In this document: positions 3,001 through 52,857 of the stretch, one piece after another | Layout of the letters: each line of letters begins with the position of its first letter | Numbering within the stretch: position 1 is the first letter of the stretch | DNA from: a virus | Lineage: Duplodnaviria > Caudoviricetes | Strand: one strand, 5' to 3' | DNA: 57,691 nucleotides | IMG/VR virus record: IMGVR_UViG_3300044631_002111 | Location: 1-57,691 of that record | Notes under the pieces: generated by a model | Seen by the model: only the letters and a program-made list of their open reading frames with translations | What the model was told of the DNA's origin: nothing | Database searches by the model: none | Made by a program: the position numbers and the translations under genes

Positions 3001-4267
3001 ACGTCTCGTCGGGCACGCGGGTAGGGTCGGGTCGAGACGCCCCCGCTTTAGGCGCCAGGTTGTCGTTGGCGGGTGCTTCGGGTGCTTCGGGTGCTTCGGG
3101 TGTGGGAGGGGCGGGGTTAGCTTTTCTCCACTGATCAATAGACTTCTTGGTGACACTGCCGCGTTCATTTGCGGGGACCTGAGCAATATCTACGCCCAAC
3201 TTCTCGGCGTAAGCCTGTGCCGCGGATGTTATTTTTGGTCCGGCAGGCTTTGCGGCGGCTTCCGTTATGTCGGTAGTTTCGGCTGCGGGAGGAACAATCG
3301 GCTTCTCGGCAATTTGTTTAGACTGTTGACGAAGCGCCTCGGCCGTCTGCGGAAGAGTCCCGGTGGATTCAGCAACACTCGCGGCACTCTCAGTAGCCTC
3401 CACGGCACGGGATTTGCCCGCGATCGCATCGTCCACAAGTTGTTGCTCCTCGGGCGTAACGGGCGTTTCCAAAGGCGCACCATCCTTGACCGGGGCAGCT
3501 TCGGGCGTTGCCTCTAAGACAGATGGCGCTTTGGGTTTCTGCCCGTTAAGGAATACCCCGCCAGGACCGACCCAAGGTTTGACCGCCAGACCCGCCACGC
3601 CCATCGCCGCTGCGGTCGGCAAGTCCCTGCCTTGCGCCAGCTCCATACCCGTTTGCGCCCCCAATCCGGCCGCGCCTCCCAACACGTTGCCGAAGTCTTG
3701 CATGGCGCGGGTCGCCTGCGGACCGGATTGTTCGAGAGCGGCACGGGCCTCTTTGTTGACCAGCGACTTGGCGACTTGGGCGACGCCAGCTCTGCCTTCG
3801 GCGGTTCCGATTGCGCGGGCGATGCCGAGGGGTTGAGACAGGCTTGGTCGACCCATGCCGATAAGAGATCCTCCAAAAGATGCTATGGGATTTGTCTCGT
3901 AATCGGCTTGAGCTGATTTGGTACCCATAATCGACTCAGGGGCCACCTCGTCAGCCACCACATCTTGCGCCTTGCGAACGCCCATGCCGGTCGCCATCGC
4001 TCCGCCAAGCGCGCCCACTATTGCCGCAGCGGGCCTCAGAGCTGCGGGGGTTAAAGCCGTCGCGACTTTCGCGGCCACCGGGGCTATGGCGGTGGCAGTG
4101 ATTCCGGGCACCACGCTGCGGACTGCTTCGCGACCAAATGAACCGAGCGCGCTAGGTTCTTCTTCTTCGGGCGCTTCCGGGCTTTTCAAATACGCGTCTG
4201 GGTCGAAAGCGTTCGACGCCGCAGAAGGGGTTTCTCCCTTCAGATACTCGTCTGGGTTAAAAGCCAT
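2..4267 (-). CDS. Large internal virion/ejected 'polyvalent'-type protein with zincin HExxH metallopeptidase domain (3'-truncated by the window edge)
   Basis: Not in the ORF track. ATG at 4267 (MAFNPDEYLKGETP...), 5 nt after the upstream stop, and I read it open to the window edge. All + strand shadow ORFs from 183 to 4271 share one phase, consistent with one long gene. HEITH at 374-388 is followed by NVDEWTA; Pro/Ala/Glu APEAP linker at ~2670-2860. Confidence 0.85.
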   Translation of the reverse strand, partial: MAFNPDEYLKGETPSAASNAFDPDAYLKSPEAPEEEEPSALGSFGREAVRSVVPGITATAIAPVAAKVATALTPAALRPAAAIVGALGGAMATGMGVRKAQDVVADEVAPESIMGTKSAQADYETNPIASFGGSLIGMGRPSLSQPLGIARAIGTAEGRAGVAQVAKSLVNKEARAALEQSGPQATRAMQDFGNVLGGAAGLGAQTGMELAQGRDLPTAAAMGVAGLAVKPWVGPGGVFLNGQKPKAPSVLEATPEAAPVKDGAPLETPVTPEEQQLVDDAIAGKSRAVEATESAASVAESTGTLPQTAEALRQQSKQIAEKPIVPPAAETTDITEAAAKPAGPKITSAAQAYAEKLGVDIAQVPANERGSVTKKSIDQWRKANPAPPTPEAPEAPEAPANDNLAPKAGASRPDPTRVPDETLLAGVAQSKTKEEFVDWAKTNGYGGTLRPVSGGQIGAEVYWTMNRPPVAEAPSVAPEALPVAPEVAPATEDNVVAPPPVAPEAPAPEAPAPEAPPVAPEAPPVAPEAPAPEELVNTDLEVFPMQGNRDVSGVNVQNISNSQVGLGLSPFRQNRFNTPEEAERALGDFDRVQFKDFSERVHNLLGSGVNESAKANTRISLNDALVSLPDGFAASALSRYSGASGMNWMKTIETLKAVKSGNPVDLFKQRSGGAASLYEIATDTKLFNYVNSRLSEVGLKGATLVKNPETGSVQVYVLVKNPEQSGTALTALKRFAQENNYGKIKVYKGDAESIGADTESATVRLRESLGQYTSGGGRDRAGGPDRLRIANELGGLAREVGIDLGPIPEYVAPRLDARGRPLKDRATSVFQYERDLAELRPALESLPADKQAKLNDLFTKSYDFLNRALGLPRMQLKELGSLLENRAGNDVFEAYAERLRKLYPEEALVPDLVARRNNFDRETDYGASFDQAKAFPKYAGYGGSRDSLARIALGNILADLVKRADDKSIPARKTKSNLAKLEALDKQIAKLQEQTTRAKRTPRAVKDRLRDLQAQREAAENQSNPWTMAPAEFKKYVEGKLDNALKATKTVEANAEKAGAKVIEDTVISGDDKENKSLVDVAPAPEENPNAGIDIEVKKAAYEALRNEDVPQADKVAIVKRLVKDGSLTEAEMRGLKPDTDALESSLAGGDKMVRDGKIEMSNRERGSLIADNYSLEQILRKEHRNEKGKLVSERLLSPLEEAAFPVDRDAPPQVIRETNAREFLAELLDSKTISSEDSALVRRLLDDANVDNIPLRIYDYLENAYGEYDRRSGVVGMNAETMTPERGVETGLHEITHGLLGYFLNPKNSASLNARQRQVVGDLNRFFERTTEAAIKSGKFTREQLEAVRAMTDEGVLELPTDQHREAYRFSNVDEWTAAMMSESGFRDYMKGLKMRNTVTGKWREAWETFKDLVARLIGVD

Positions 4268-15865: not shown

Positions 15866-15886
15866 GGGCGGCGGTATATTATACCT

Positions 15887-28118: not shown

Positions 28119-29918
28119 TCAAATAGAAAATTTGCTAAACTTGATGGACTTGCCCGAGTTAGCGGCGGAGAGCTTTCCAAAAGTAATTTTACGCTTCACC
28201 TGAATCGAGGTCTCTTGACGCTTCATAGTTACTGTCATGCCACCGAATCCGAACCTTTGACGACACAGCTCAATCAAAATCATGGCCGCGTCGGCCAAGT
28301 CAGGTGATGCGCCGGTCCGGGCTTTCATGTCCGTCTTGCTTTCGACCTCCATGCGGATGGACGCCCCTTTCTTGGTGGAATACTTCCGGGCGCACATCTC
28401 CTTGGCCAGTTCGCGGTCTATGCCCTTGAGCTGCCCGGTCCGAATCAGCTCTTTGGCCCCGAACCACAACTCGGAAACCCTGTTGGTATACCGCTCGCTG
28501 CTAAGAGCGGAGTCGGAGATAGAGACAGGAAGTTCGCTAGCCTTGCCGCCGAACTGAACGCCCAGAACTTCGGGCGACCAGACCATGGAGACGACGTCCC
28601 CGAACGGACCACCAGCTCCAGACTTGTCGTAGGAAGCGCACCAAGGTTCCACTCCCTCCGCCTCACAGGCGTCTTTGAACTGCTGGACGATTTGTTCAGT
28701 CCGGGTTCGTTTCTTGTCGTGAACATTGTCCTGAAGAAGTTTCCGGTGGGTAAACATGAGTGTCGGAATCCCGTCCCGCGAGATGCCGAACTCCCCAAAT
28801 TGTATTGGAGTGCGGTCGCCTCCATTGGTGAAGGCCGGGTCCAGGCCAGCTATCTTGGTCGGCGGCTCTAGCCAGATCGCCTCCCCGTCCGCCCCTGCCG
28901 AAATGATCTCCGTCTCAGAGTAAATGTTGTCCTCGTCTCCCGTGGGGGCCCAGTACCCGCGGAACATGCGGTAGTAGGCCAGCGAGTTCTCCCCAAACCG
29001 AGCTTTGGCCTCGTCCAACTTAGCCTGGGTGACAATCCAGGGGTAAATCGTCTTTCCGGTCAGCACGTTCGGGCTGCGCTCCCCGTCAAACCGGATACAC
29101 AGTCCGCGCTCAGTGTCCCACTCCTCTTCCAGGGGGCTGATCGACTGCCAACCGCCCTTTGGTTTGGCTAAAATACCGAACGCGTCAAAGCGGCTGGCGG
29201 GGTTCCCGATCCCGATGAACTGGAACTCGGGGTTTAAGGACAGATTCGACGCCGAGGCCTCCAAAATTGACTCGGAAAGCTCGGGCATCTCGTCAGCGAT
29301 AACAATGACGCGCCGATTTTTGAACCCGATCAATTTTCCCACGGCTTCTTTTTCTTTTTTCTTCTCGGCCGCGATGAGCGTGATGCCGCATTTGTCCGAA
29401 GTTCCGCCCGTTCCGTCCTCGAACCGGATAAGCCCCATGGAATCGACAAGTTTCCCCGGCAGCGGAGGTGCAGCTTGCCAGTAATCCCGAATACTCCCCC
29501 AAATGCGTTTGCGGGAATCCTTCAAAGTGGTCGAAGTTACGAGCACCATCGTGTCATAAGGCGCGGCGATGAAATTCACGATCGCCCACACGGCGAAAAA
29601 ATCCGTTTTCCCAGACGAAGCACACCCGGCCACGGCGAGGTATTGATTGGCGCAGGACGCTTCCAACATCCGTTCGGCCCATGGGTGCCAGACGAAGGGT
29701 TTCGGACCGTCTTCCGGCCACAGAGCTGACACGATGCGCTTGAAATGATGCTCGGGCGTCTCCCCGCCTTTCTCCAGCGGCATCGGATTGCGAAACGAAA
29801 ACAGTTCGCGGTTGAATTGGTCGATCTTTTTGCTCCACCAACGCCCGTACTGCCACTCTTTGTCGGAGACATCGACGACACGGCCATCCGCCGTGCGAAT
29901 TTTTCCTCGTGATGACAT
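28119..29918 (-). CDS. terL: Terminase large subunit
   Basis: Walker A GCASSGKT, Walker B IVIADE, GIGNP coupling motif, nuclease GLDPAF and SPDLADA. Confidence 0.93.
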   Translation of the reverse strand: MSSRGKIRTADGRVVDVSDKEWQYGRWWSKKIDQFNRELFSFRNPMPLEKGGETPEHHFKRIVSALWPEDGPKPFVWHPWAERMLEASCANQYLAVAGCASSGKTDFFAVWAIVNFIAAPYDTMVLVTSTTLKDSRKRIWGSIRDYWQAAPPLPGKLVDSMGLIRFEDGTGGTSDKCGITLIAAEKKKEKEAVGKLIGFKNRRVIVIADEMPELSESILEASASNLSLNPEFQFIGIGNPASRFDAFGILAKPKGGWQSISPLEEEWDTERGLCIRFDGERSPNVLTGKTIYPWIVTQAKLDEAKARFGENSLAYYRMFRGYWAPTGDEDNIYSETEIISAGADGEAIWLEPPTKIAGLDPAFTNGGDRTPIQFGEFGISRDGIPTLMFTHRKLLQDNVHDKKRTRTEQIVQQFKDACEAEGVEPWCASYDKSGAGGPFGDVVSMVWSPEVLGVQFGGKASELPVSISDSALSSERYTNRVSELWFGAKELIRTGQLKGIDRELAKEMCARKYSTKKGASIRMEVESKTDMKARTGASPDLADAAMILIELCRQRFGFGGMTVTMKRQETSIQVKRKITFGKLSAANSGKSIKFSKFSI

Positions 29919-30047: not shown

Positions 30048-30077
30048 ATATTAACCCAAAACAGAGTGTTTCGTCAA
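30048..30077 (-). promoter_or_regulatory. Putative leftward (terL/virion operon) promoter
   Basis: TTGACG (30077-30072), 18 nt, TAATAT (30053-30048); bracketed by two 13-bp motifs. Confidence 0.55.
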
Positions 30078-30170
30078 GGGGTTTCATACACCATGACCAA
30101 AAAAGAGTGTCGGTATATTCCACTTTCCCGGTTGACAAGCGTCACCAAGCGTCACCATATTGCGGCACCT

Positions 30171-31334
30171 ATGAAGTTAAAAAAGACCAAAAACATCGTG
30201 TATCCTTTCGTCCAAAAGACCCCCTTCGGGAGCGTGAACATCTACCGACAGGGTCAGGGCAGAACAAGATACTTTGTCACCTGGACGGGGGAGAACGGGC
30301 GGCAGAGAGCGGCCTTCGACAACGAAGTCACAGCGCACCAACGCGCGGAGGAGATCATCGAAGATTTCCGTCGCGGAGTATCCTTGAGAAACAACATCAC
30401 CTCCGCCCAAGCGGCTCGGATTGCCGAATACAGCTCCGTCCTATCCGAGCACAACGTGTCCATAGGGGATGCGGTGAAATTTTTCGTCTCGCACGTCACC
30501 AACACAGCAAAAACGAAGAAAGACGCCTTACTCGCGGCACACGAATATCTCAGCTCGTTCGAGGAACAATCGTCCAAGAACCGGCACTACTCGACAGTCC
30601 GCTCGATCTGCATGCAGTTCGGAAGAGCTTTTAGGAAAACTCTCGACGCTATAACGCTCAAAGAACTCGACACCTACTTGCGGGGAATCTCGTCCTCCGG
30701 GAGAACTCGGAACAACCATCTCGGCACGCTCAAAACTTTTTTCAAGTGGGCGCAGAAATGGGGGTATATGGCTACCGGTGAGATGGAGATCGACAAGATC
30801 GACCAGTTTAAACAGGCCATCTCTCCCATCGAAATCTTCACCCCCGCGGAAATGCGCAAGCTGCTGGCGAATGCGAGCGAAGAGCTGTTGCCTGCCCTGG
30901 TTGTCGGCGCTTTCGCGGGCGTTCGCACGGCGGAAATCAGCCGAATGCACTGGGAGGACATCCGCTTGGATGAAAAAGTCATCATGCTCGACTCCCAAAA
31001 GACTAAGACCAAGCGGCGCCGGATGCCCCTGATCTGCGACAACTTGGCGGCTTGGTTGGAGAAGCTCAAAGGGGACAAGACGGGCCCAATACGCTGCGGC
31101 CAGACCAAGTTCCACCACGACAGGGCCGCGCTCTGCGAAAAGGTTGGGATTCCTTGGAAAGACAACGGGCTTCGCAAAAGCTACATTTCCTACCGCATGG
31201 CCCAGCCGGACGCGGACGCCCAGAAGGTTTCCAAGCAGTGCGGAAATTCCGCGGACATGGTGGAGGAGTGCTACAAAGGCTTAGTTCCTCCAAGCGCAGC
31301 AAACGAGTGGTTTTCCCTCTTACCCCAGCAATGA
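30171..31334 (+). CDS. int: Tyrosine integrase
   Basis: AGVRTAEI (Arg I), KTK (Lys), NGLRKSY (H-x-x-R box variant), CGNS and Tyr in EECYK; likely start ATG 30171. Confidence 0.92.
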   Translation: MKLKKTKNIVYPFVQKTPFGSVNIYRQGQGRTRYFVTWTGENGRQRAAFDNEVTAHQRAEEIIEDFRRGVSLRNNITSAQAARIAEYSSVLSEHNVSIGDAVKFFVSHVTNTAKTKKDALLAAHEYLSSFEEQSSKNRHYSTVRSICMQFGRAFRKTLDAITLKELDTYLRGISSSGRTRNNHLGTLKTFFKWAQKWGYMATGEMEIDKIDQFKQAISPIEIFTPAEMRKLLANASEELLPALVVGAFAGVRTAEISRMHWEDIRLDEKVIMLDSQKTKTKRRRMPLICDNLAAWLEKLKGDKTGPIRCGQTKFHHDRAALCEKVGIPWKDNGLRKSYISYRMAQPDADAQKVSKQCGNSADMVEECYKGLVPPSAANEWFSLLPQQ

Positions 31335-44099: not shown

Positions 44100-44370
44100 G
44101 ATGGAACAAGGCTAGTGGTATATGCGGCCAAGTCAATACTTTTCCTTAAAAGATCAGCTTACCTCCCACCCCGCCCTAGTTTAACATAAATCGAAGCTAA
44201 TTGCGGCGAATACCGGCCGATTCTCCGCAGGATGTGTAAAAACAAGTTGGACAGAAGATAGAGCTTTTGATCGGGGGCTATTGCAATTTGATACCCCGAC
44301 ACCCAGATGCGGAGCAATTTGAGACAGGGATGCAGGGATTCAGGGGTACAAACGGGGGACAGCTATCGAA

Positions 44371-44668
44371 TTGGGTGGATGTAATTCTGCTGGGTGGATG
44401 AGAAAATTTTACATCCACCCAAATTAAGGTGCTGATTTTGAGACGTTTGTGATCGCTGGGTGGATGAGGGGGGTTAGGTGGGTGTGTTTTGAGTCCTTAT
44501 ACATAATGGGTGTATGAAGGAAGATGCCTTATTATTTTTCTCGCGCGCGTATTTTAAAATTACATCCACCTCATCCACCCAAATTGCATAAGTCGTTGAC
44601 CATCAACATCGCATTTGGGTGTATCAAGCGTTTTTTCTCATCCACCCAAACCCACCCTCATCCACCCA
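44371..44668. repeat. Iteron-like CATCCACCC(A) repeats in both orientations (ori or packaging-site candidate)
   Basis: TGGGTGGATG at 44372, 44391 and 44457; CATCCACC(CA) at 44412, 44563, 44572, 44639 and 44659; AT-rich centre; non-coding. Confidence 0.8.
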
Positions 44669-45024
44669 ATACTGATAACTCGCTTTTTATCCTGTCAACT
44701 GGCCCCCGGCGGGGCGTTGTCTGTTTTTGCGGCCGGACCAATCTCATGGAATTCGATGGGGTATCGCCGCCCCCCCCTCAACTTGGTATGTGCAACCCTG
44801 TCGCCTTGATGCCTTGATTTTGCGCGCTATGGCCTCCAGGAGACGTTTTCATGGTTTGAGGCGCCCGTTGGAGCCTTCCGGGGTCTGAACACGTCCTGGG
44901 GCCAAAATTTTTTTACGGAGGGGTATATTAATTCGTTCTGTTTAAAGACACCCCCTGCACCCCCACCCCCCGGCGGGGGTCAATACAGAGGTGGCCCTCC
45001 ACTATCTTTCACGTATAGGCCCGG

Positions 45025-45040
45025 TATCCGATATCGGATA
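45025..45040. repeat. 16-bp palindrome TATCCGATATCGGATA, copy 1
   Basis: Extends to 20 bp (GG...CC). Confidence 0.95.
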
Positions 45041-45144
45041 CCCCAACAGGCCGCGCCACCTAACTACAGGGGCAGGTGTGAGCGGGACACGTGACCGGAA
45101 GCAATAACGCCAACGGCGCGCAATCCCCCGCCCACACCTATAAC

Positions 45145-45654
45145 ATGAAGAAAGCGAAAACCGAAAAGAAGGCGCGCGCTGTCGTCGCCGAAACGAAAAC
45201 CGCTGGCCTCCTCGCCAGCACGGCGCGCATCCTGTCGCGCCTTGTGGGCGGGCTGGTAAAGATCGCGTCCGGCGAGGATTCTCTCGCCGCGCACGTTGAA
45301 AAGACCAAGGCCACACTCAAAGCGCAGATTGATGCGGCAGTCGAAGACTGGCGCGCAATCAAAGCGGAACACCGCGAACCCGCCGAGCGGAAAGCGTTGG
45401 CGCAAAGCGTTTATAACGCTTTGACAAAAGAGCACGGCATGACGCCACAACGCGCTTCCGAGGTTCTGAAACGCATTGGCGTGCAGATTCGCGAAAAGGC
45501 GAAAACCGAGGCGACGAACGTCTCGGCGGAAAATATCGAACAGCTTTTCATGCTGGCCGATAAGTTAGAGAATGGGGACGGGCGCCGCGTTTGCGCGCTT
45601 CTCTCCCGCGCTTATGGGAAAGGCCGGAAGGTCTACCCTGCGAAACGCGACTAA
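45145..45654 (+). CDS. Basic helical hypothetical protein (possible DNA binder)
   Basis: 169 aa, isolated unit with its own terminator; HTH-like GMTPQRASEVLKRIG. Confidence 0.65.
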   Translation: MKKAKTEKKARAVVAETKTAGLLASTARILSRLVGGLVKIASGEDSLAAHVEKTKATLKAQIDAAVEDWRAIKAEHREPAERKALAQSVYNALTKEHGMTPQRASEVLKRIGVQIREKAKTEATNVSAENIEQLFMLADKLENGDGRRVCALLSRAYGKGRKVYPAKRD

Positions 45655-45656
45655 TC

Positions 45657-45693
45657 AAAAAGACCCTCGCACCTTCGGGTGCGGGGGTTTTTT
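45657..45693 (+). terminator. Rho-independent (probably bidirectional) terminator
   Basis: ACCCTCGCACC-TTCG-GGTGCGGGGGT followed by a T-run and preceded by an A-run; between convergent genes. Confidence 0.9.
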
Positions 45694-45790
45694 CGTGCCA
45701 AAATCACTGTCATGTTCACTGTCACCAACTGTCATCTACTTTCACTGCTCGCGCGCGGTTGCGCTCCTCTGCTCCTCTGCTCCTCGACTA

Positions 45791-46426
45791 TTATCCGATA
45801 TCGGATAAGTCGTTTTGCTGCTCATCGGGCTGGCAACCCGTAGTTTCACTCTGTGGAGCATCGGATGGTGACGCTTTGGTGACGGATTCGGCCTCATTTT
45901 CGACGAATTCGCCCTCTATGATCTCATCCTGCAAACTTGTCTTTAGCCTCTCGTTGACGACCTGCAACTGGACGATGGTGTTGCTCTTGCCCTCTGTCTC
46001 GTCGATGCCCAGCAACCGGCGCATCATCTTATCCGCGATGTCGTAGTCCTTCCAGTTGCGCGGCGGGGCGATGATCGTCTGGTCAAGAAGTCTGGCCATC
46101 TTTAAGACCCCTTTGCTCCGGTAGTCCTTGGTGGCCTTGTCGAAGTCGAGCGCACCTGTTGATGTCGATAACGAGTTTGCGGAGCGCGCGGCTCCTTCTA
46201 TTTGTTCTGCAAGAGCATTGTTTTCTGTGACCCTGTAACCCTGCATCTCTGCGACCTTGTCGAGCTTGTTCCGAACACGCTTCGGAGTGTTCCATTTGTA
46301 GCGCATACTCCGCATCCGGATGGTCGCCTGATTTATTCCGAACATCCGTGCTACATCTGCCAGAGAAGTTCCCTTCTCCACCACCTTTTGAATCTCGTCC
46401 CATGGGACATCTAGTGCTTTGGGCAT
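45791..46426 (-). CDS. terS: Terminase small subunit-like HTH protein
   Basis: W..I.....G.SL..VA..FGI...TI..R..R..W N-terminal HTH, 'RRLLGID' and an acidic tail; promoter TTGACT-17-TATTCC upstream. Confidence 0.6.
   Translation of the reverse strand: MPKALDVPWDEIQKVVEKGTSLADVARMFGINQATIRMRSMRYKWNTPKRVRNKLDKVAEMQGYRVTENNALAEQIEGAARSANSLSTSTGALDFDKATKDYRSKGVLKMARLLDQTIIAPPRNWKDYDIADKMMRRLLGIDETEGKSNTIVQLQVVNERLKTSLQDEIIEGEFVENEAESVTKASPSDAPQSETTGCQPDEQQNDLSDIG
45792..45807. repeat. 16-bp palindrome, copy 2 (encodes SDIG-stop of the TerS-like gene)
   Basis: Exact match. Confidence 0.95.
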
Positions 46427-46493
46427 AATTTGGACAGGTCTGTAAAGCTCTGCAACTTGTTGTAAAAAAGGTAGGAATATGGTGTATTAAACC

Positions 46494-46522
46494 TTGAGTC
46501 AAGCACTACCCCATGTTAATAT
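46494..46522 (+). promoter_or_regulatory. Strong sigma70-like early promoter, divergent from terS
   Basis: TTGAGT, 17 nt, TAATAT with extended -10 TG; GGTGTATTAAACC at 46481-46493 abuts the -35. Confidence 0.7.
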
Positions 46523-46630
46523 GGTTATCGTAAGGTAAGAGTTAGATCAGACCCTTACGATCCTTGAAATTTGAAGGCCAAGTAAGTCCGAGGCAAGTGT
46601 GCCAACGCTGAGTCGATTGACTGCCAGAAG

Positions 46631-46646
46631 TATCCGATATCGGATA
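46631..46646. repeat. 16-bp palindrome, copy 3 (inside the ncRNA candidate)
   Basis: Exact match. Confidence 0.95.
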
Positions 46647-46904
46647 ACTCCGGTGAAGCGTGGGTGGCGGGCGCCGAGCACGACCCGACGATACTGCATG
46701 GCCGAGAAGTGAGATCAGACCAGCATCAGCAAAAGTTGGTTCCTGTGCCGACCCGCATTGAAAGCGGGCAGCAACCCTAACGGGTTCAAGTCGTGTAGCG
46801 CGAAAGCGTGTGACGGGCGGATGGTGCAAAGCCCACAGGATGCGCGGAAGTGGATAGCTGGTAGACCGGACACTCGCATTGGGTTGCTCCCAACCTCCGG
46901 TGCT

Positions 46905-46920
46905 TATCCGATATCGGATA
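46905..46920. repeat. 16-bp palindrome, copy 4 (inside the ncRNA candidate)
   Basis: Exact match; extends to CTT...AAG. Confidence 0.95.
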
Positions 46921-47310
46921 AGTAGATTAACCTTGTAGCGTCGATTTATTCACGCGAACGGATTGACGTCTGGCAGACGTCTGAAACAGCAAAGCGTGGA
47001 ATGTCTGGCCAAGATGGCAGCAGACTCGCACAACGCTCATTCGCCCTTCGCGAATAGCAAGTAAGCGTGGAAGCCCTCGGCCCGAGTTGTATCCGAACCC
47101 CCTTTCCGAGCCTATCGGCTCACCTAAAAAATCAGCGGGAATCCCATACAAGTCGTTGAGACGTCGCGTAATTAAAGCAAAAGCAAAAGTCATTAGATCA
47201 CCCCCTGCTTCGAGAGAGGCAGGGGCTATCTGGTGAATAAGTGTTACCAGAGACGCTCTGCCGTCAGGCAGGGTATATTCAACCACAACCTAAAAACGAA
47301 AGATCATACC

Positions 47311-47553
47311 ATGAACAAACAAATGCACCGCTTCACAGCACCGCTGGAAAGCGACGACTGGAAACAACGTCTCGCCGCCTACCTCGCGCAAGACGACGAG
47401 TCGTTGGAAGCGCAATACCACAAGAACGACACCGCCTCGGAACCCGATCCGGAGCCGTTCTACTTCGTCGCACCCGCTGTCTCCGAACAGCGTTTCGCGG
47501 TTCCCACCAACGTGTTGTCCGCCTTGGACACACTCAACAAGTCGGTCGCCTAG
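47311..47553 (+). CDS. Early hypothetical protein
   Basis: 80 aa, GAAAGA leader. Confidence 0.6.
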   Translation: MNKQMHRFTAPLESDDWKQRLAAYLAQDDESLEAQYHKNDTASEPDPEPFYFVAPAVSEQRFAVPTNVLSALDTLNKSVA

Positions 47554-47558
47554 TCCGG

Positions 47559-47574
47559 TATCCGATATCGGATA
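47559..47574. repeat. 16-bp palindrome, copy 5
   Basis: Exact match, intergenic. Confidence 0.95.
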
Positions 47575-47599
47575 AGTAACCCAAAATTACTTTCACACT

Positions 47600-47839
47600 A
47601 TGAGCACCAACTTCCCATCAACCGGCATCAAACCGCAAGACGTTGCCGCGGAACTAGCACAAGCCATCCGCGACCACCGCCAGCGCAAAACCCTGCGCCT
47701 TGTCGTCCGAGACAACGACGGCAGCAACCAATGCTTGCCGCCCTCGGCGTGGATGATCCTCGCCGACCGGATCTCCAACCGCGCCATCGACAAAGTCATG
47801 GACGTGGTGGCCAAGCAACGCATCGGCCTTGCCGCCTAA
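47600..47839 (+). CDS. Early hypothetical protein ending in LAA
   Basis: 79 aa. Confidence 0.65.
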   Translation: MSTNFPSTGIKPQDVAAELAQAIRDHRQRKTLRLVVRDNDGSNQCLPPSAWMILADRISNRAIDKVMDVVAKQRIGLAA

Positions 47840-47944
47840 TCCCATGACCACCATCGAACTCACTCAAACGATGCTGGAGATCGCCGTGTTCCTCGTCATC
47901 CCCGCCGTGTTTGTCGCGGTGTGGGTCACCAACGATTAAGCCCT

Positions 47945-47960
47945 TATCCGATATCGGATA
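47945..47960. repeat. 16-bp palindrome, copy 6
   Basis: Exact match, 7 nt before ATG 47968. Confidence 0.95.
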
Positions 47961-47967
47961 TCTCACC

Positions 47968-48645
47968 ATGAAACATCTGTTCTACCAACCGCTCAAAGTT
48001 GACGCCAAAGACCCCGACGTTCTGTTTTGGGGTTGTTTGCATTACGGCCACGACCCCAAGTGGGATGTCCCACTCTGGGCGCGGCGCGGCTATGCTTCGT
48101 CGGCGGATCACGATCAAGGCATCATAGATGCCTGGCGCACCAAGGCCACCGACCGCACCATAGCTTTCCTGCTCGGAGACAATGTCTTCGGCTACGGAGG
48201 CGAAGAGAAGTTCCGTTACCTGCTCGACACGCTGCGCTTCAAGACCGCGTATGTTTTGTCGGGCAACCACCACGCCGGATGGAAGCAAGTGTTCGAGAGC
48301 TGCGAAGGTAATACCCTGCAACTCGGCGACGACAAGTCCGTGGTCTTTGTCCCCAACTACTTGGAGACATACGTCAACGGCCAACCCATCGTCCTGTCGC
48401 ATTATCCGATAGCTTCATGGAACGGCCAAGGCCACGGATCGTGGATGCTCCATAGCCATTGCCACGGAGAACTCTACAAGAGCGACCTCGGCAAGCTGCT
48501 CTACCGCGCCAAGATCAAGGACGTTGGTGTGGACTGCTGCCCTGCACCCCTGTCGTTTGGCGAACTGCGACACCAATTCCGTGAAGAGTCGGTCAGCTTC
48601 GACCATCACACCCCGAACACTCGGACTCCGTTTACCCCGCAATGA
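47968..48645 (+). CDS. Calcineurin-like metallophosphoesterase
   Basis: CLHYGH, LLGD, GNHH, HYP, HSHCH, DVGVD motifs. Confidence 0.85.
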   Translation: MKHLFYQPLKVDAKDPDVLFWGCLHYGHDPKWDVPLWARRGYASSADHDQGIIDAWRTKATDRTIAFLLGDNVFGYGGEEKFRYLLDTLRFKTAYVLSGNHHAGWKQVFESCEGNTLQLGDDKSVVFVPNYLETYVNGQPIVLSHYPIASWNGQGHGSWMLHSHCHGELYKSDLGKLLYRAKIKDVGVDCCPAPLSFGELRHQFREESVSFDHHTPNTRTPFTPQ

Positions 48646-48893
48646 ACTGCCCACAATGCGGCGCCGGTATTCCGGCTGCTCGCACCAACCTCGGCTTCTT
48701 CATCTGCGTGTCTTGTGCTCAACAGCGTCCGGTTCCCAAATACAAGGGAGCCATGACCTACGATCAAAAGACCGGAGGCGCCGTCACCCTCATGTCGCCC
48801 GCCGAGTTCACCTACTTCAGGAAGGTGACTCGTCGCCGTGGGCAGCAAAGCGTCCTGCGCAACGTGTTACACGCAAACGGACGCGCCGTCTGA
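48642..48893 (+). CDS. Small Zn-finger protein (DksA/TraR-like C4)
   Basis: CPQCG..IP.AR......CVSCA. Confidence 0.6.
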   Translation: MNCPQCGAGIPAARTNLGFFICVSCAQQRPVPKYKGAMTYDQKTGGAVTLMSPAEFTYFRKVTRRRGQQSVLRNVLHANGRAV

Positions 48894-48899
48894 AACCCT

Positions 48900-48915
48900 T
48901 ATCCGATATCGGATA
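48900..48915. repeat. 16-bp palindrome, copy 7
   Basis: Exact match, intergenic. Confidence 0.95.
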
Positions 48916-48982
48916 ACTCTGGCAAACGCCGTCCCGCCAACAAGTGGACAGCAAAACCTAACCTAGAAAGACCAACACCAGT

Positions 48983-49420
48983 ATGAACGAATCCATCGAA
49001 TACTCCGATCTGTATTCTGGCGTCCAATACTCCAAGGATCAGCACGACGAGCTTGTCGCGCCGCTTCTGCGCGTTATCGAAACCATCCCCTCGGTCGTTC
49101 GCGACGAGAAGGGGAGTGTCAAACTCGGCGAGCCGATCATCGCCGACCTCTTGGGGAGCTACCCCATGACCATCGTGCGATTCCGTCCGAGCATTGTCTT
49201 GACGCTCCAACTCCAAGACGACGGCGGCAAGCCGTATGTCATCGGCAAACTCAAAAAGTTCCACGAACTGCGCCGCGCAGAAAATGGCGACGTCATCAGT
49301 AGTGCAAACGAGACCATTGAATTGGGGCCGTTGTATCCGCGGGAATTGGAACGTCTACCCGAACTTGTCGCCAAGCTGGAGCAGACAGAAGTCCCGAATC
49401 TCTTATCCGATATCGGATAA
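48983..49420 (+). CDS. Early hypothetical protein (ends SDIG inside the palindrome)
   Basis: 145 aa. Confidence 0.65.
   Translation: MNESIEYSDLYSGVQYSKDQHDELVAPLLRVIETIPSVVRDEKGSVKLGEPIIADLLGSYPMTIVRFRPSIVLTLQLQDDGGKPYVIGKLKKFHELRRAENGDVISSANETIELGPLYPRELERLPELVAKLEQTEVPNLLSDIG
49404..49419. repeat. 16-bp palindrome, copy 8
   Basis: Exact match. Confidence 0.95.
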
Positions 49421-49481
49421 CTCTGGCCTCCGCCATCCCGCCAACAAGTGGATGGCATCTAACCTAGAAAGAAAACGAACC

Positions 49482-49676
49482 ATGACCTTCGAGTCACCAA
49501 CCAAACAACCGAACCGCCGCGCCTTCATCTGGAGACCCGGCTGCAAGCGTCTCGTGCCCGAGACGACCCGCAAAACCCAGCACTCCTTCTCCTTCCTACC
49601 GGATGCCGAGATCGAGCGCTACGTCAGCGCCGATTTGGCGCAGGGTATCATCAACCGCAACCCTAAAAAGCACTAA
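49482..49676 (+). CDS. Early hypothetical protein
   Basis: 64 aa after a CCTAGAAAGA leader. Confidence 0.55.
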   Translation: MTFESPTKQPNRRAFIWRPGCKRLVPETTRKTQHSFSFLPDAEIERYVSADLAQGIINRNPKKH

Positions 49677-49851
49677 CCCACATGAAGAAGAAATCCCCAA
49701 AGCAGGGACAACCCCTCAATTCAACCGGACAGAAATGCACCTGCCGCAAAGGCGTTGAACGCAACAACTGCCCCCACTGCGAAGGCACAGGATGGCGCAT
49801 CAATTTCCGCGCTGTGTTCTTCAACTTCCTATCCGAACTCGACGAATACCA

Positions 49852-50316
49852 ATGAGCAAAAAACTCACCAAGAAAGCTCTGTTGCAGAAGGCCAAAGCCC
49901 GACTCATGGGCGACGAACCGACTGCTGCCGAGATGTTCCTCCTCGCCCACAAGTTGGGGATAAAGTCTGCCAAGATCGAATTCAGCGGTTCCGGTGACGA
50001 CGGCGATTACTACGACCCAGAATACGAAGGCGGCGAAGACCCCAAGATCACAGACGCCAGCGGCAACTGGGTCCCCAACCCCAAGTATGGGGAAGACCAC
50101 CAACGCTTGGACAAAATGGTCCAAGAGACGGCGGAGAACTGGGTCCAAAGCACCGACGTCGATTGGTATAACAACGAAGGCGGCGGAGGTAACGTCGCGT
50201 TCGACTTCAAGACCGGCGGAGTGACCGGATACATCTTCCAATACGAGCAGGTCGAACACGAAGCCGCTAGCGGGGAGTGGAACCTGCTCGAAGACAAAGA
50301 AGAGGGGGACGAGTAA
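49852..50316 (+). CDS. DUF6878-like protein
   Basis: GI....IEFSGSGDDG ... DWYNNEGG.G. Confidence 0.7.
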   Translation: MSKKLTKKALLQKAKARLMGDEPTAAEMFLLAHKLGIKSAKIEFSGSGDDGDYYDPEYEGGEDPKITDASGNWVPNPKYGEDHQRLDKMVQETAENWVQSTDVDWYNNEGGGGNVAFDFKTGGVTGYIFQYEQVEHEAASGEWNLLEDKEEGDE

Positions 50317-50675
50317 TGTCGCACCCCTACCACCACGCCGTTTCCTCTGCCAAGAAGTGGGGAGGAAAGGCCGAGGACTACCAGAAGATTCACGACTGGT
50401 TCGACCAGTCGAAATCATTCTATGCCGACTGGCGGCATCGCGCCCTTCGCCACCACGCGGAGGGCATTTTTATGTGCGAGTCCATCTTCGGCGTCACCCT
50501 CACCAACTCGCTCGGCCAGGAGATTCCTGTCCGTTTGATCGGCGAGCAACACGTCCGCGAGGACTTGGGCCGGATACCCAGCGTCCAAGACTGGCTCTCC
50601 AACATCACAAGTGTGCCGTGGATGCGGCACACCCCTAAAGAAGATCAACCACAACCAGTATCCGATATCGGATAA
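50316..50675 (+). CDS. DUF6915-like protein (ends SDIG inside the palindrome)
   Basis: HPYHHA.SS.KKWGG...DY..IH.WFD.SK....RHRA.RHH.EG...EQHV.ED. Confidence 0.75.
   Translation: MSHPYHHAVSSAKKWGGKAEDYQKIHDWFDQSKSFYADWRHRALRHHAEGIFMCESIFGVTLTNSLGQEIPVRLIGEQHVREDLGRIPSVQDWLSNITSVPWMRHTPKEDQPQPVSDIG
50659..50674. repeat. 16-bp palindrome, copy 9
   Basis: Exact match. Confidence 0.95.
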
Positions 50676-50710
50676 GTCACCACACCAACAACAAACTAAC
50701 TCAAATAAGT

Positions 50711-51777
50711 ATGAGCACTAACCTAACAACCGAAGAAATCGCGGACAAGATCCGCTCCTCTGCCCTGCTGGTATCTCTCCAGCTCGGCTCCTACAACCCC
50801 GTCAAGACCGACAAGACCGAGAGCCGCAAGGTCTCTTCGTCGCACGGCATCAACGACCCGAAGCTGATGAAGGTCCAGAAACACACGCTGCCCACGGCTG
50901 GCGTGCTCGACGACATCGGCAAGCTCGACACCAAGATCCGCGCTGCTGTTGACAAGTATACCGCTCCGTTTGCTCGGGGCATTGGTCTGCTTCCGGCCAT
51001 CAAGTTCTTCGACCTGCGCAAAGAAGTTAATGCGCTCTTCGACGAACGCGCCACCATGGTCAAGCGATTGGCCGATGAATACTCGATCTACTTGGACGGC
51101 GCGAAACGCAGCCTCAACGGCGCCTTCAAGGACGACGACTACCCTCCGGTCACCGACGTTGTCTCGCGCTTCTACGCCAAGCTCGACAGCTTCGCCATCG
51201 CCAACCCCAAGGACGCGCGCCTCGGAGTGCTCGGCGAAATCGCGGAGCAGATCCAAGCCGCGCAAGCCGACACCCTCAACGACAAGTTGTCCACAGTCGT
51301 GCCCTACCTGCGTGAGCTTCTGCTCAAGGCCCTCTGCCACCAGTCGGCCATCTTGCAGAACCCCGACGCCAAGCTCTACGAAACTACTTTCACGAACGTG
51401 CTGGAAGCCGCGGAGCAAGCCGAACATCTCAACATGTTGGGCGACGAACAGATCATCAACGCCGTCTTCGCCATCCGTGACCGGCTCGACCGGACCAAGG
51501 ATCAGGTGAAGGACGACGACCACATGCGCAAAATGATGTGTCCAAAGGCACAGGCAAGGCCAAAGCCAAGAAGTCCGTGGCCCCTGCCGCGCCGCTTCCC
51601 GAACCTCCTGCCGAGATCATCGTGCCCGATCTGGCCGAGGAGGATGAGCCGATTGATGAGCCGATTTCCTCCGCAGAAGTTGCGGAGATTGAACCGGAAA
51701 TCTCCGCAGAAGTGGAGACGACCGAAACCAAGGCGTCCTTCGACGCTGATGCCATGCTGGCCAAACTCGGCTGGTAG
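50711..51777 (+). CDS. DUF3150-like protein, apparently frameshifted near 51540
   Basis: LVSL.L..Y...KTDK...G..LLP...F...DYP....F motifs; the natural-looking acidic tail and stop (51777) are in the -1 frame. Confidence 0.6.
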
Positions 51778-51822
51778 GTATCATACACCACACCAACAAC
51801 ATAACCTAGAAAATCAAACATC

Positions 51823-52836
51823 ATGCAAACGATCGAAGTCACAACATCCCAACTGAAAACCGTCCTCAAGGACTGCCGTGCCGCCAAGCTCAACCCCTTC
51901 ATCCAAGGTCAGCCGGGGGTCGGCAAGTCCGCTGTCGTCAACGAGTTCGCCCGTGAGGAGAACTCCGAGTTCATCGACGTCCGCTTGGCCTACTTCGGCC
52001 CGCAGGACTTCGGCTACCCCTACCTCCACGTCAACGAGGACGGCACCAAGACTATGCGCGTCAGCCGCCCCTCGTTCTGGCCGACCACCGAGAACTCGGT
52101 GATCGCCTACGAGGAGTTCAACACCTGCTCCAAGAACGTGCAGAACTGCTCGTTGCAGTTGTTCCATGACCGCCGCCTCAACGACCACCACCTGCCGGAG
52201 GGCACGTTCCAAGTGCTGCTCGGCAATCGTGCCGAGGACCGCGTCAACATCGAGAAGCTCTCGTCCGCGGTCATCAACCGCATCGTCAACATCCGAGTCC
52301 GCCTCGACTTGGATTCGTGGATCAAGTGGGCGCAGAAACATGACGTTGACTCTCTGGTCATCGCCTTCCTGCGCTTCCGCCCCGACTTGTTGACGACATT
52401 CAACGGAGCCAAGTGGGACGGCGTGAGCAACTTCGCCTCGCCCCGCACATGGGAGAAGGCGGGCAACATCATCTCGGTGTCCACCGACCGCCACGTCCGC
52501 CACGCCCTCTTGCAGGGTGCGCTCGGTGACGGCGCTGCTGCCGAGTTCCTCGGCTTCCTCGCCGTCTACGAGAAGCTGCCCGACTTGGACGGCGTGCTGC
52601 TCAACCCGAACAAGGCTCCGGTCCCGACTGACCCTGCCACCATCTGGGCTACTTGTGCTGGCCTGTCCAAGCGCGTCAAGCCCAAGACCATGCCCAACTT
52701 CCTCACCTACCTCGACCGACTCCCCAAGGAGTTCTCGATGTTCGGGGTCAAGACGGCGGTCAACCAGAACAAGGCGCTCATGAATACCCCCTCGTTCGTG
52801 ACGTGGGTCACCGACAACCAAGAGGCGTTCAACTAA
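51823..52836 (+). CDS. MoxR-like AAA+ ATPase
   Basis: GQPGVGKS, IDVRL, YEEFN (Walker B variant), GNR.ED, NR, SPRTW. Confidence 0.9.
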   Translation: MQTIEVTTSQLKTVLKDCRAAKLNPFIQGQPGVGKSAVVNEFAREENSEFIDVRLAYFGPQDFGYPYLHVNEDGTKTMRVSRPSFWPTTENSVIAYEEFNTCSKNVQNCSLQLFHDRRLNDHHLPEGTFQVLLGNRAEDRVNIEKLSSAVINRIVNIRVRLDLDSWIKWAQKHDVDSLVIAFLRFRPDLLTTFNGAKWDGVSNFASPRTWEKAGNIISVSTDRHVRHALLQGALGDGAAAEFLGFLAVYEKLPDLDGVLLNPNKAPVPTDPATIWATCAGLSKRVKPKTMPNFLTYLDRLPKEFSMFGVKTAVNQNKALMNTPSFVTWVTDNQEAFN

Positions 52837-52841
52837 CCACT

Positions 52842-52857
52842 TATCCGATATCGGATA
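52842..52857. repeat. 16-bp palindrome, copy 10
   Basis: Exact match, between the AAA and VWA genes. Confidence 0.95.

Follow-up and report, generated by a model that had tools for sequence, protein, structure and literature searches.

Cis-acting RNA elements in the leaders of early operons are known from several phages, such as the nut sites of lambda, the put RNA of HK022 and the P4 leader with its CI RNA, and the early leader of T7 carries RNase III hairpins. Here we analyze a stretch with a similar layout on a linear IMG/VR virus record of 57,691 nt, with a completeness of about 80%, which as a whole we call the window. The stretch is a gene-free gap of 884 nt (positions 46427-47310), bordered on one side by the gene of a helix-turn-helix (HTH) protein (45791-46426, minus strand) and on the other by the first early gene (ATG at 47311). 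The original prediction had placed a long gap without a credible open reading frame (ORF) at the head of the early genes, and this is what we found; the gap is not unique, since codon scores reveal a second non-coding gap in the window at 44100-45090. Like the leaders mentioned above, the stretch would be situated between an early promoter and the first early gene, and by analogy its stem-loops would act on their own transcript; unlike them, it is far longer and more modular, and the likeness drawn here is one of layout. In our judgement, there is about an even chance that the stretch is a modular, hairpin-rich untranslated 5' leader of the early operon, encoded on the plus strand and acting in cis.

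Other described systems that come close are the large RNAs GOLLD, ROOL and OLE (PMC12286853). The stretch is like them in its size class (hundreds of nucleotides), its many hairpins, its phage and lake setting and its non-coding nature, and unlike them in that it has no Rfam match, has been found in one phage population only, shows patchy stability and has no tRNA neighbours (neither tRNA nor tmRNA was found by ARAGORN).

The stretch 46427-47310 is non-coding. Firstly, the best-frame codon scores of seven windows of 240 nt (starts 46321-47041) range from -0.04 to -0.23, and six of the seven are at or below the 10th percentile of the genome (-0.069; median 0.207; 479 windows). Secondly, within 46527-47273 there is no ATG-started ORF of at least 30 aa on the plus strand. 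Thirdly, the four ORFs of 49-119 aa that we checked are all broken by natural variants, which belong to the two haplotypes, X9 and X13, that are discussed below: on the plus strand, 46758-46925 is broken by a 1-nt deletion at 46856 in X9, and 47087-47236 gains a TAA through the X9 change 47174 A>T; on the minus strand, 46542-46829 is broken by X13 insertions of 1+1 nt at 46771 and 46776, and 46927-47286 by X13 insertions totalling 8 nt at 47252-61. Besides these four, the gap contains six shorter ORFs (30-38 aa with a GTG or TTG start; 35-54 aa on the minus strand). The 119-aa ORF on the minus strand has no Pfam match, and among 33 candidates from a set of 5.8 billion proteins it matched only itself.

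If the stretch is a leader, the early operon would be read rightward, on the plus strand, from a sigma70-like promoter, P1, at 46494-46522, and its RNA would be a chain of separate modules instead of a single fold. The elements are given below with pair probabilities (P) from a span-limited minimum free energy (MFE) fold and with folding z-scores of the domains, which refer to the plus strand and 150 shuffles unless stated otherwise.

46494-46522, plus strand: candidate promoter P1, recognised by its sequence (TTGAGT at 46494-99, a 17-nt spacer and TG-n-TAATAT, with the hexamer at 46517-22).
46527-46561, plus strand: 5'-terminal hairpin with a 9-bp stem, ATCGTAAGG/CCTTACGAT (P 0.88; z -4.0 on the plus and -3.45 on the minus strand).
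46631-46646, no strand assigned: first copy of the palindrome TATCCGATATCGGATA, an exact match.
46719-46862, plus strand: multibranch domain, with a closing helix (46719-27/46853-62) around CCUGU/ACAGG and four hairpins (closing P 0.95, inner P 0.75-0.99).
46865-46924, plus strand: hairpin ACCGGA..UCCGGU, followed by the second palindrome copy with its stem extended over 46901-46924 (P 0.88 and 0.99; z -3.4).
46926-47062, plus strand: variable stretch with weakly predicted pairing and small stable hairpins at 47003-25 and 47039-55 (z -1.25).
47063-47172, plus strand: domain with UUGUAU/AUACAA enclosing GAGCC/GGCUC (core P 0.97-0.99; z -1.8 on the plus and -0.65 on the minus strand).
47190-47236, plus strand: long hairpin with a GAGA loop, 19 pairs (three are G-U) and an A-rich flank on its 5' side (P 0.90-0.98).
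47255-47274, plus strand: terminal hairpin GCUCUGCC-GUCA-GGCAGGGU (P 0.94).
47272-47310, plus strand: second promoter-like element, GGTATATT, and a CA-rich untranslated stretch upstream of the ATG at 47311, identified by motif matches.

Such a leader would begin with the 5' hairpin (46527-61) and include the two palindrome copies and the multibranch domain closed by 46719-27/46853-62. Further downstream would come a spacer under little constraint (46926-47062), a conserved small domain (47063-172) and the two strong 3' hairpins (47190-236 and 47255-74), which are immediately followed by the second promoter element, of phage type, and by the first gene. On the early transcript, the 5' hairpin and those of the palindromes would have a stabilising role or mark processing sites, and the 3' hairpins would insulate the operon or attenuate read-through into it; alternatively or additionally, the palindromes may be sites for a phage protein. 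The layout is consistent with this proposal in that P1 (46494-522) and the ATG of the first gene at 47311 are both on the plus strand, and the related loci L009 and L025 have the same layout. Furthermore, no terminator-like site was found on the plus strand in 46427-47310 by a scanner that is blind to stems with internal loops, and the local stability of the stretch is patchy.

A TTGAGT-17-TAATAT site directly before the predicted RNA had been noted earlier, and it is indeed present as P1, with an expected transcription start near 46527-46531; it agrees with the consensus at 8/12 positions and therefore was not listed by a strict promoter scanner. Promoters of the same layout are found at like places in the relatives, TTGACT-17-TATATT in L009 and TTGACA-17-TATTAT in L025, and a local alignment of the window with L009 has a score of 37 (shuffles: mean 25.6, sd 2.9, max 38).

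The evidence that some of these hairpins behave as RNA structures comes from natural variants. The stretch is present in many lake metagenomes. A search of sequencing runs gave 18 DNA runs with it and no RNA run, a result that speaks neither for nor against its expression; four runs were compared, and the two variant haplotypes, X9 and X13, come from different studies. The figures given here are among the differences listed, beside which 44 further differences stand. The run X19 is labelled RNA-Seq but rated probably DNA, and from its one 188-nt contig over 46514-46700 we draw nothing on expression; its variant 46560 A>C breaks one pair of the 5'-terminal hairpin. X9 differs from the reference by 23 substitutions and one deletion in 46607-47303 (23/697, 3.3%), and eight of the 23 substitutions form four compensatory pairs (46725/46855, 46726/46854, 46903/46922 and 47261/47268). 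In the closing helix of the multibranch domain, X9 and X13 both carry 46725 A>G with 46855 T>C and 46726 T>C with 46854 A>G, by which A-U and U-A become G-C and C-G; both also lack the bulged A46856 and have a G-U pair owing to 46858 C>T. In the stem of the second palindrome, X9 has the compensatory changes 46903 C>T and 46922 G>A together with 46923 T>C, which turns a G-U into a G-C pair, and X13 has 46903 C>T alone, giving an intermediate U-G pair. In the terminal hairpin, the X9 changes 47261 C>T and 47268 G>A are compensatory and 47257 T>C turns a U-G into a C-G pair, while 47271 G>A breaks a pair. Six of the X9 changes recur in X13.

Such a number of double changes is not expected by chance for the better-defined helices. 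With the fold of the reference only, X9 shows 2 double compensations, as compared to 0.12 for random placement (P(>=2) = 0.005; 20,000 trials). For potential helices of at least 8 pairs and a span of at most 160, there are 4 versus 0.42 expected (P = 0.0008; 5,000 trials), and for those of at least 9 pairs 3 versus 0.20 (P = 0.0014). As to the strand, several states of these helices contain G-U pairs: G46723-U46858 in the variants and U46903-G46922 in X13, and G46902-U46923 and U47257-G47272 in the reference. Because these would be A-C mismatches on the minus strand, the selected structures are plus-strand RNA. A bias of the G-U pairs towards the plus strand had been predicted, and the fold, the variant states and the strand-specific z-scores all agree with it. 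The data thus support the view that some hairpins behave as plus-strand RNA structures under selection, with compensatory pairing kept in three helices.

Elsewhere in the stretch, the picture is different. Pairs are kept through compensatory change in these three helices only and not in 46926-47062, where the X9 changes in predicted pairs (46983, 47031, 47036 and 47061) all break them (4/4), including the ACGCT arm; nine of the 23 X9 changes fall in 46922-47064. X9 is unchanged in 46727-46853 (127 nt), 47065-47173 (109 nt) and 47175-47253 (79 nt), and thus has no change in the long hairpin at 47190-47236. One X9 contig (contig 15) has about 205 extra bases between the leader and the first gene (47286-47303), flanked by an 18-nt duplication of the CA-rich motif.

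Several points weigh against a cis-acting leader with selected hairpins. For helices of at least 7 pairs with no limit on their span, 6 "compensations" were counted versus 2.3 at random, and P(>=4) is 0.21, which is not significant; the other X9 changes are near chance, with 6 pairs kept, 6 broken and 7 changes unpaired versus 5.9, 7.9 and 8.9 expected. A single event may account for the adjacent changes at 46725/26 and 46854/55. Among the three helices with support, two are short hairpins, one of which extends a perfect DNA palindrome that could be a protein site instead. The data come from two haplotypes only, at a contig depth of 2-5, and from the listed share of the differences. P1, moreover, is only 8/12 to consensus and was missed by the scanner, and we infer transcription, start site and read-through alike. 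Finally, the leader may be a separate transcript, because the operon has a promoter-like element of its own at 47272.

This element overlaps the 3' arm of the terminal hairpin. The 19-mer GGTATATTCAACCACAACC has 4 matches at up to 3 mismatches, where 0 are expected, and the shorter motif GGTAT[AC][AT]T has 23 in the window, many of them immediately upstream of gene starts; the relatives carry the element too. Examples are those at 15873/15885, 17188/17200, 23755 (minus strand), 28103, 30045, 36765/36777, 44922, 47272, 49644 and 51777. The motif lacks a conserved -35 and, between divergent genes, sometimes forms the palindrome GGTATATTATACC; probably it represents the -10 element of the main promoter type of the phage or its host. 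Hairpins similar to that at 47255-74 precede the first early gene in the relatives L010, L011 and L031. In the window and its relatives, an A/C-rich motif (AACC..TAAAAAC), which is not a Shine-Dalgarno sequence, is located 10-30 nt upstream of many ATGs, and one copy, at 47122-30 within the stretch, lacks a start codon; the motif hints at a host that initiates translation without Shine-Dalgarno pairing.

The variants also bear on the possibility that the stretch is decayed coding sequence or a neutral spacer with chance hairpins. It has no homologues, most of its domains have ordinary folding scores and 46922-47064 is variable, as one would expect of such DNA. However, tblastx against all fetched loci and the window gave nothing below E 0.02, and hence no protein-level remnant; the divergence of X9 (23/697) is no higher than in the flanking genes (13/530 in the HTH gene and 22/308 in the next gene), long stretches are unchanged and the compensatory changes are significant. 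We regard this explanation as very improbable.

A more demanding alternative is that the stretch encodes a discrete, large and ornate non-coding RNA of a new class, made early, released by processing, and acting in trans or assembling like GOLLD or ROOL. A highly structured, single ornate RNA of about 750 nt was at the heart of the original prediction, and the folding of the region as a whole is in its favour: the z-score is -4.52 on the plus and -3.70 on the minus strand (20 shuffles each), and among 11 windows of 747 nt the region ranks lowest, with z from +1.30 to -3.23 in the 10 controls (14 shuffles). Separate domains give a patchier result. In the genome, windows of 100 nt have a mean z of -0.56 (sd 1.40), and 8% of the 118 values are at or below -3. 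Three domains are set apart from this baseline by lower values (46525-63, z -4.0; 46863-925, z -3.4; 47180-280, z -5.7), the last of them with -2.85 on the minus strand and with 150-nt windows down to -6.5 on the plus strand. The other four of the seven (46569-710, z -1.3; 46716-865, z -2.2; 46926-47062, z -1.25; 47063-172, z -1.8) fold no better than ordinary sequence of the genome. Because the z-scores of the domains are patchy relative to this baseline, "highly structured" holds for three hairpin modules and not for the whole. The helices that had been read by eye all exist, most with a P of 0.75-0.99, but the AGCGT/ACGCT enclosure of 46937-47037 is of low probability. The global MFE fold includes a 17-bp duplex between the two palindrome copies.

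A discrete RNA would further be consistent with the multibranch domain (46719-46862), which has GNRA loops, although a z of only -2.2, and whose long-range closing helix shows compensation; with the three stretches of 127, 109 and 79 nt without an X9 change; and with the presence of other structured RNAs at the same locus in relatives, namely the L009/L025 core and the twister-P1-like element of L010, which are described below. On the other hand, four of the seven domains are ordinary, the predicted pairs of 46926-47062 are broken by variants, and, next to the promoter-like site that a discrete RNA gene would have, the scanner described above found no terminator-like site on the plus strand. 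The searches for known families argue in the same direction. With cmscan and Rfam 15, no match in the whole window reached the gathering score, and in 46300-47500 there were 0 even at E<=10, the ribozyme models (twister, hammerhead, pistol, hatchet, HDV-like) included. Because there is no Rfam match even at E<=10, the stretch is not GOLLD, ROOL, a known ribozyme, a riboswitch or an intron, and the membership of the GOLLD/ROOL class that had been considered is not supported.

Homologues were sought by blastn in INPHARED phages, where the stretch has none, and among loci fetched via the neighbouring HTH gene (3+7 from IMG/VR, 15 from metagenomes and 1 from a genome) and via a phosphoesterase gene (18). 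In these loci, blastn, nhmmer and Smith-Waterman found nothing alignable to the stretch save the promoter, the 3' motif and the palindrome. A test of covariation among homologues in related phages had been envisaged, and no collection searched contained a homologue; conservation with covariation across many genomes, as for GOLLD and ROOL, was thus not seen. Covariance models built from the relatives did not recognise the window either. Model R1 (L009/L025) gave no match with default filters and at best 5.1 bits with the filters off, at 46938-55, a hairpin that shares a 10-nt loop, and chance alone would yield about 0.6 such 10-mer matches; model R2 (L010/L011) gave at best 5.5 bits. Three apparent leads were dropped: the likeness of 47076-47130 to a block of L011 has a score of 25, within the range of shuffles (null maximum 33); the phosphoesterase neighbour L046 (72% identity) is not syntenic; and L012, a contig of 1,083 nt with the closest HTH relative (76% identity), has unrelated upstream sequence. 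The latter is a contig of a metagenome-assembled genome in which the HTH relative, without its first 8 codons, adjoins what was read by eye as UvrA-like coding sequence; it would be either a prophage remnant or a chimeric contig. In summary, the stretch is in no known RNA family, is without a homologue in the collections searched, and the evidence for one ornate RNA is weak. What stands of the predicted RNA is that some hairpins are selected on the plus strand; the patchy domains, the broken pairs and the scan without a plus-strand terminator-like site speak against its unity. We consider a discrete RNA of a new class unlikely, although it deserves to be weighed.

The stretch may instead be mainly a control region at the DNA level, with divergent promoters and an array of operators (the 16-bp palindromes) for the HTH protein, and with incidental RNA folding. 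The palindrome TATCCGATATCGGATA has 10 exact copies in the window, identical at 16/16 positions and all located in 45025-52857, where 0 are expected. They are mostly situated at gene junctions of the early block on the plus strand and have conserved 3' flanks (AAGT or AACTC). Two of them had been predicted within the stretch, and both are present, at 46631-46 and 46905-20. The HTH gene is adjacent and divergent. Moreover, TTGAGTCAA at 46494-46502 is itself a palindrome that could serve both divergent promoters, and the stretch contains direct repeats of 10-15 nt. Of these repeats, AGTKAGATCAGACC is present twice, with a third, weaker copy (46540-53, 46708-21 and 47193-206), and AAGCGTGGAA twice (46992-47001 and 47063-72). 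As a probe in IMG/VR, the palindrome found 11 unrelated stretches and no multi-copy relative; relatives such as L009, L011 and L025 have, at corresponding places, short hairpin repeats of their own that differ from it.

Repressor sites that are spread over the genome have been described for Cluster A mycobacteriophages, where the so-called stoperators are asymmetric sites bound by a monomer (PMC9283540). The palindromes resemble stoperators in being many identical short sites, several of which lie at gene junctions, distributed over a part of the genome that is transcribed; they differ in that they are perfect 16-nt palindromes and putative sites recognised from sequence alone. Against control at the level of DNA, however, a helix whose arms are 130 nt apart has retained its pairing despite two changes and a lost bulge, the G-U states and the strand-asymmetric stability point to RNA, and two operator sites do not account for 884 nt, the binding of the palindrome by the HTH protein being itself putative. 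A region that acts mainly as DNA is, in our opinion, an improbable explanation of the locus.

The relatives provide a further view of the locus. The leaders of L009 and L025 are about 750-780 nt long and share a non-coding core (L009 1126-1396 and L025 322-592, both on the minus strand) of 276 columns, or about 270 nt, that is 88% identical, with blocks of 25-35 nt that are invariant. Both sides are changed in 8 of the 66 predicted pairs, three of these 8 being consecutive, 0 are broken, and slid controls gave 0 doubles; the count of 8 is biased upwards because the structure was derived from that same alignment. Rfam gave no match to the core, which is a candidate for a new structured RNA. In L010, positions 3680-3759 (minus strand) resemble the twister-P1 model along its full length. 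The score of 45.4 bits (E 8.5e-9, searching 701 nt) falls short of the gathering score, 67.2, and a CUC/GAG change in the pseudoknot looks compensatory. This likeness to the twister ribozyme (Rfam twister-P1) concerns the leader of the relative at the same locus, where the match is sub-threshold, and the window itself has none. Within the leader, the element comes directly after an ORF for a membrane protein of 55 aa. Blocks with two covarying pairs are common to L010 and L011, and in both relatives non-coding stretches with conserved hairpins are located within the same transcription unit, which is in favour of a leader; a 17-mer common to both found, as a probe, those two records and 2 chance matches in coding sequence. 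On this basis, we put forward, as a speculation that we consider unlikely, that the head of the early operon in this uncultured freshwater phage clade is a slot for large structured RNAs whose occupant differs from lineage to lineage: by the orphan element of about 750 nt in the window (which would be a new class, processed and acting early), by the core of about 270 nt in L009/L025, and by a twister-like ribozyme with hairpins in L010.

With respect to the surroundings of the stretch, terL (28119-29918) and the structural genes are on the minus strand, and the integrase (30066-31334) and the replication genes (helicase, exonuclease and DNA polymerase) are on the plus strand, as is the block of small genes that runs from 47311 onwards. 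No cultured relative was found by tblastn with terL among 50,697 phage records, and the best identity of the DNA polymerase is about 26%, which is consistent with a lineage without a close cultured phage. The genes next to the stretch are as follows.

45791-46426, minus strand: divergent protein of 211 aa with an N-terminal HTH, taken from the ORF listing; the only gene on its strand in the neighbourhood.
47311-47553, plus strand: first early gene, 80 aa (codon score 0.379), without a family match; a palindrome copy (47559-74) follows 6 nt later.

The 211-aa protein had been labelled as the small terminase subunit, terS, a label that we do not retain: its Terminase_5 match has 16.5 bits, below the cut-off of 20.3, the PHROG terS match is weak (3.5e-4), as is that to a PHROG DNA-binding family (2.8e-5), its Pfam matches are all below the cut-off, and Foldseek gave no match in the PDB at E<=0.001, so that neither an above-threshold family match nor a match to a TerS fold was obtained. 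In addition, terL (28119-29918) is 16 kb away. The AlphaFold model has a mean pLDDT (predicted local distance difference test) of 65.3, with the HTH residues 9-42 above 90, and relatives of the protein at 47-76% identity are found in the loci fetched with it (3+7 IMG/VR, 15 metagenome and 1 genome). A replication origin was also considered for 46427-47310 and rejected, because an iteron-rich, origin-like region is found at 44350-44670, inside the gap 44100-45090. There, about nine copies of GGGTGGATG or its reverse complement are arranged in two opposed groups beside an AT-rich patch, and the GC skew swings strongly, which resembles an iteron-type origin.

If the stretch is simply a leader with stabilising hairpins and operator sites, it would represent ordinary phage regulation, and even then the palindrome array and the GGTATAWT promoter motif would aid the annotation of the clade. 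If it is a functional RNA, the few large RNAs known from phages would be joined by an orphan element of about 750 nt, which would stem from a lineage without a cultured relative. Since three related lineages appear to carry three different structured RNAs at one position, it can be asked what a phage needs from RNA structure in its early transcript, and the locus could serve as a comparative system.

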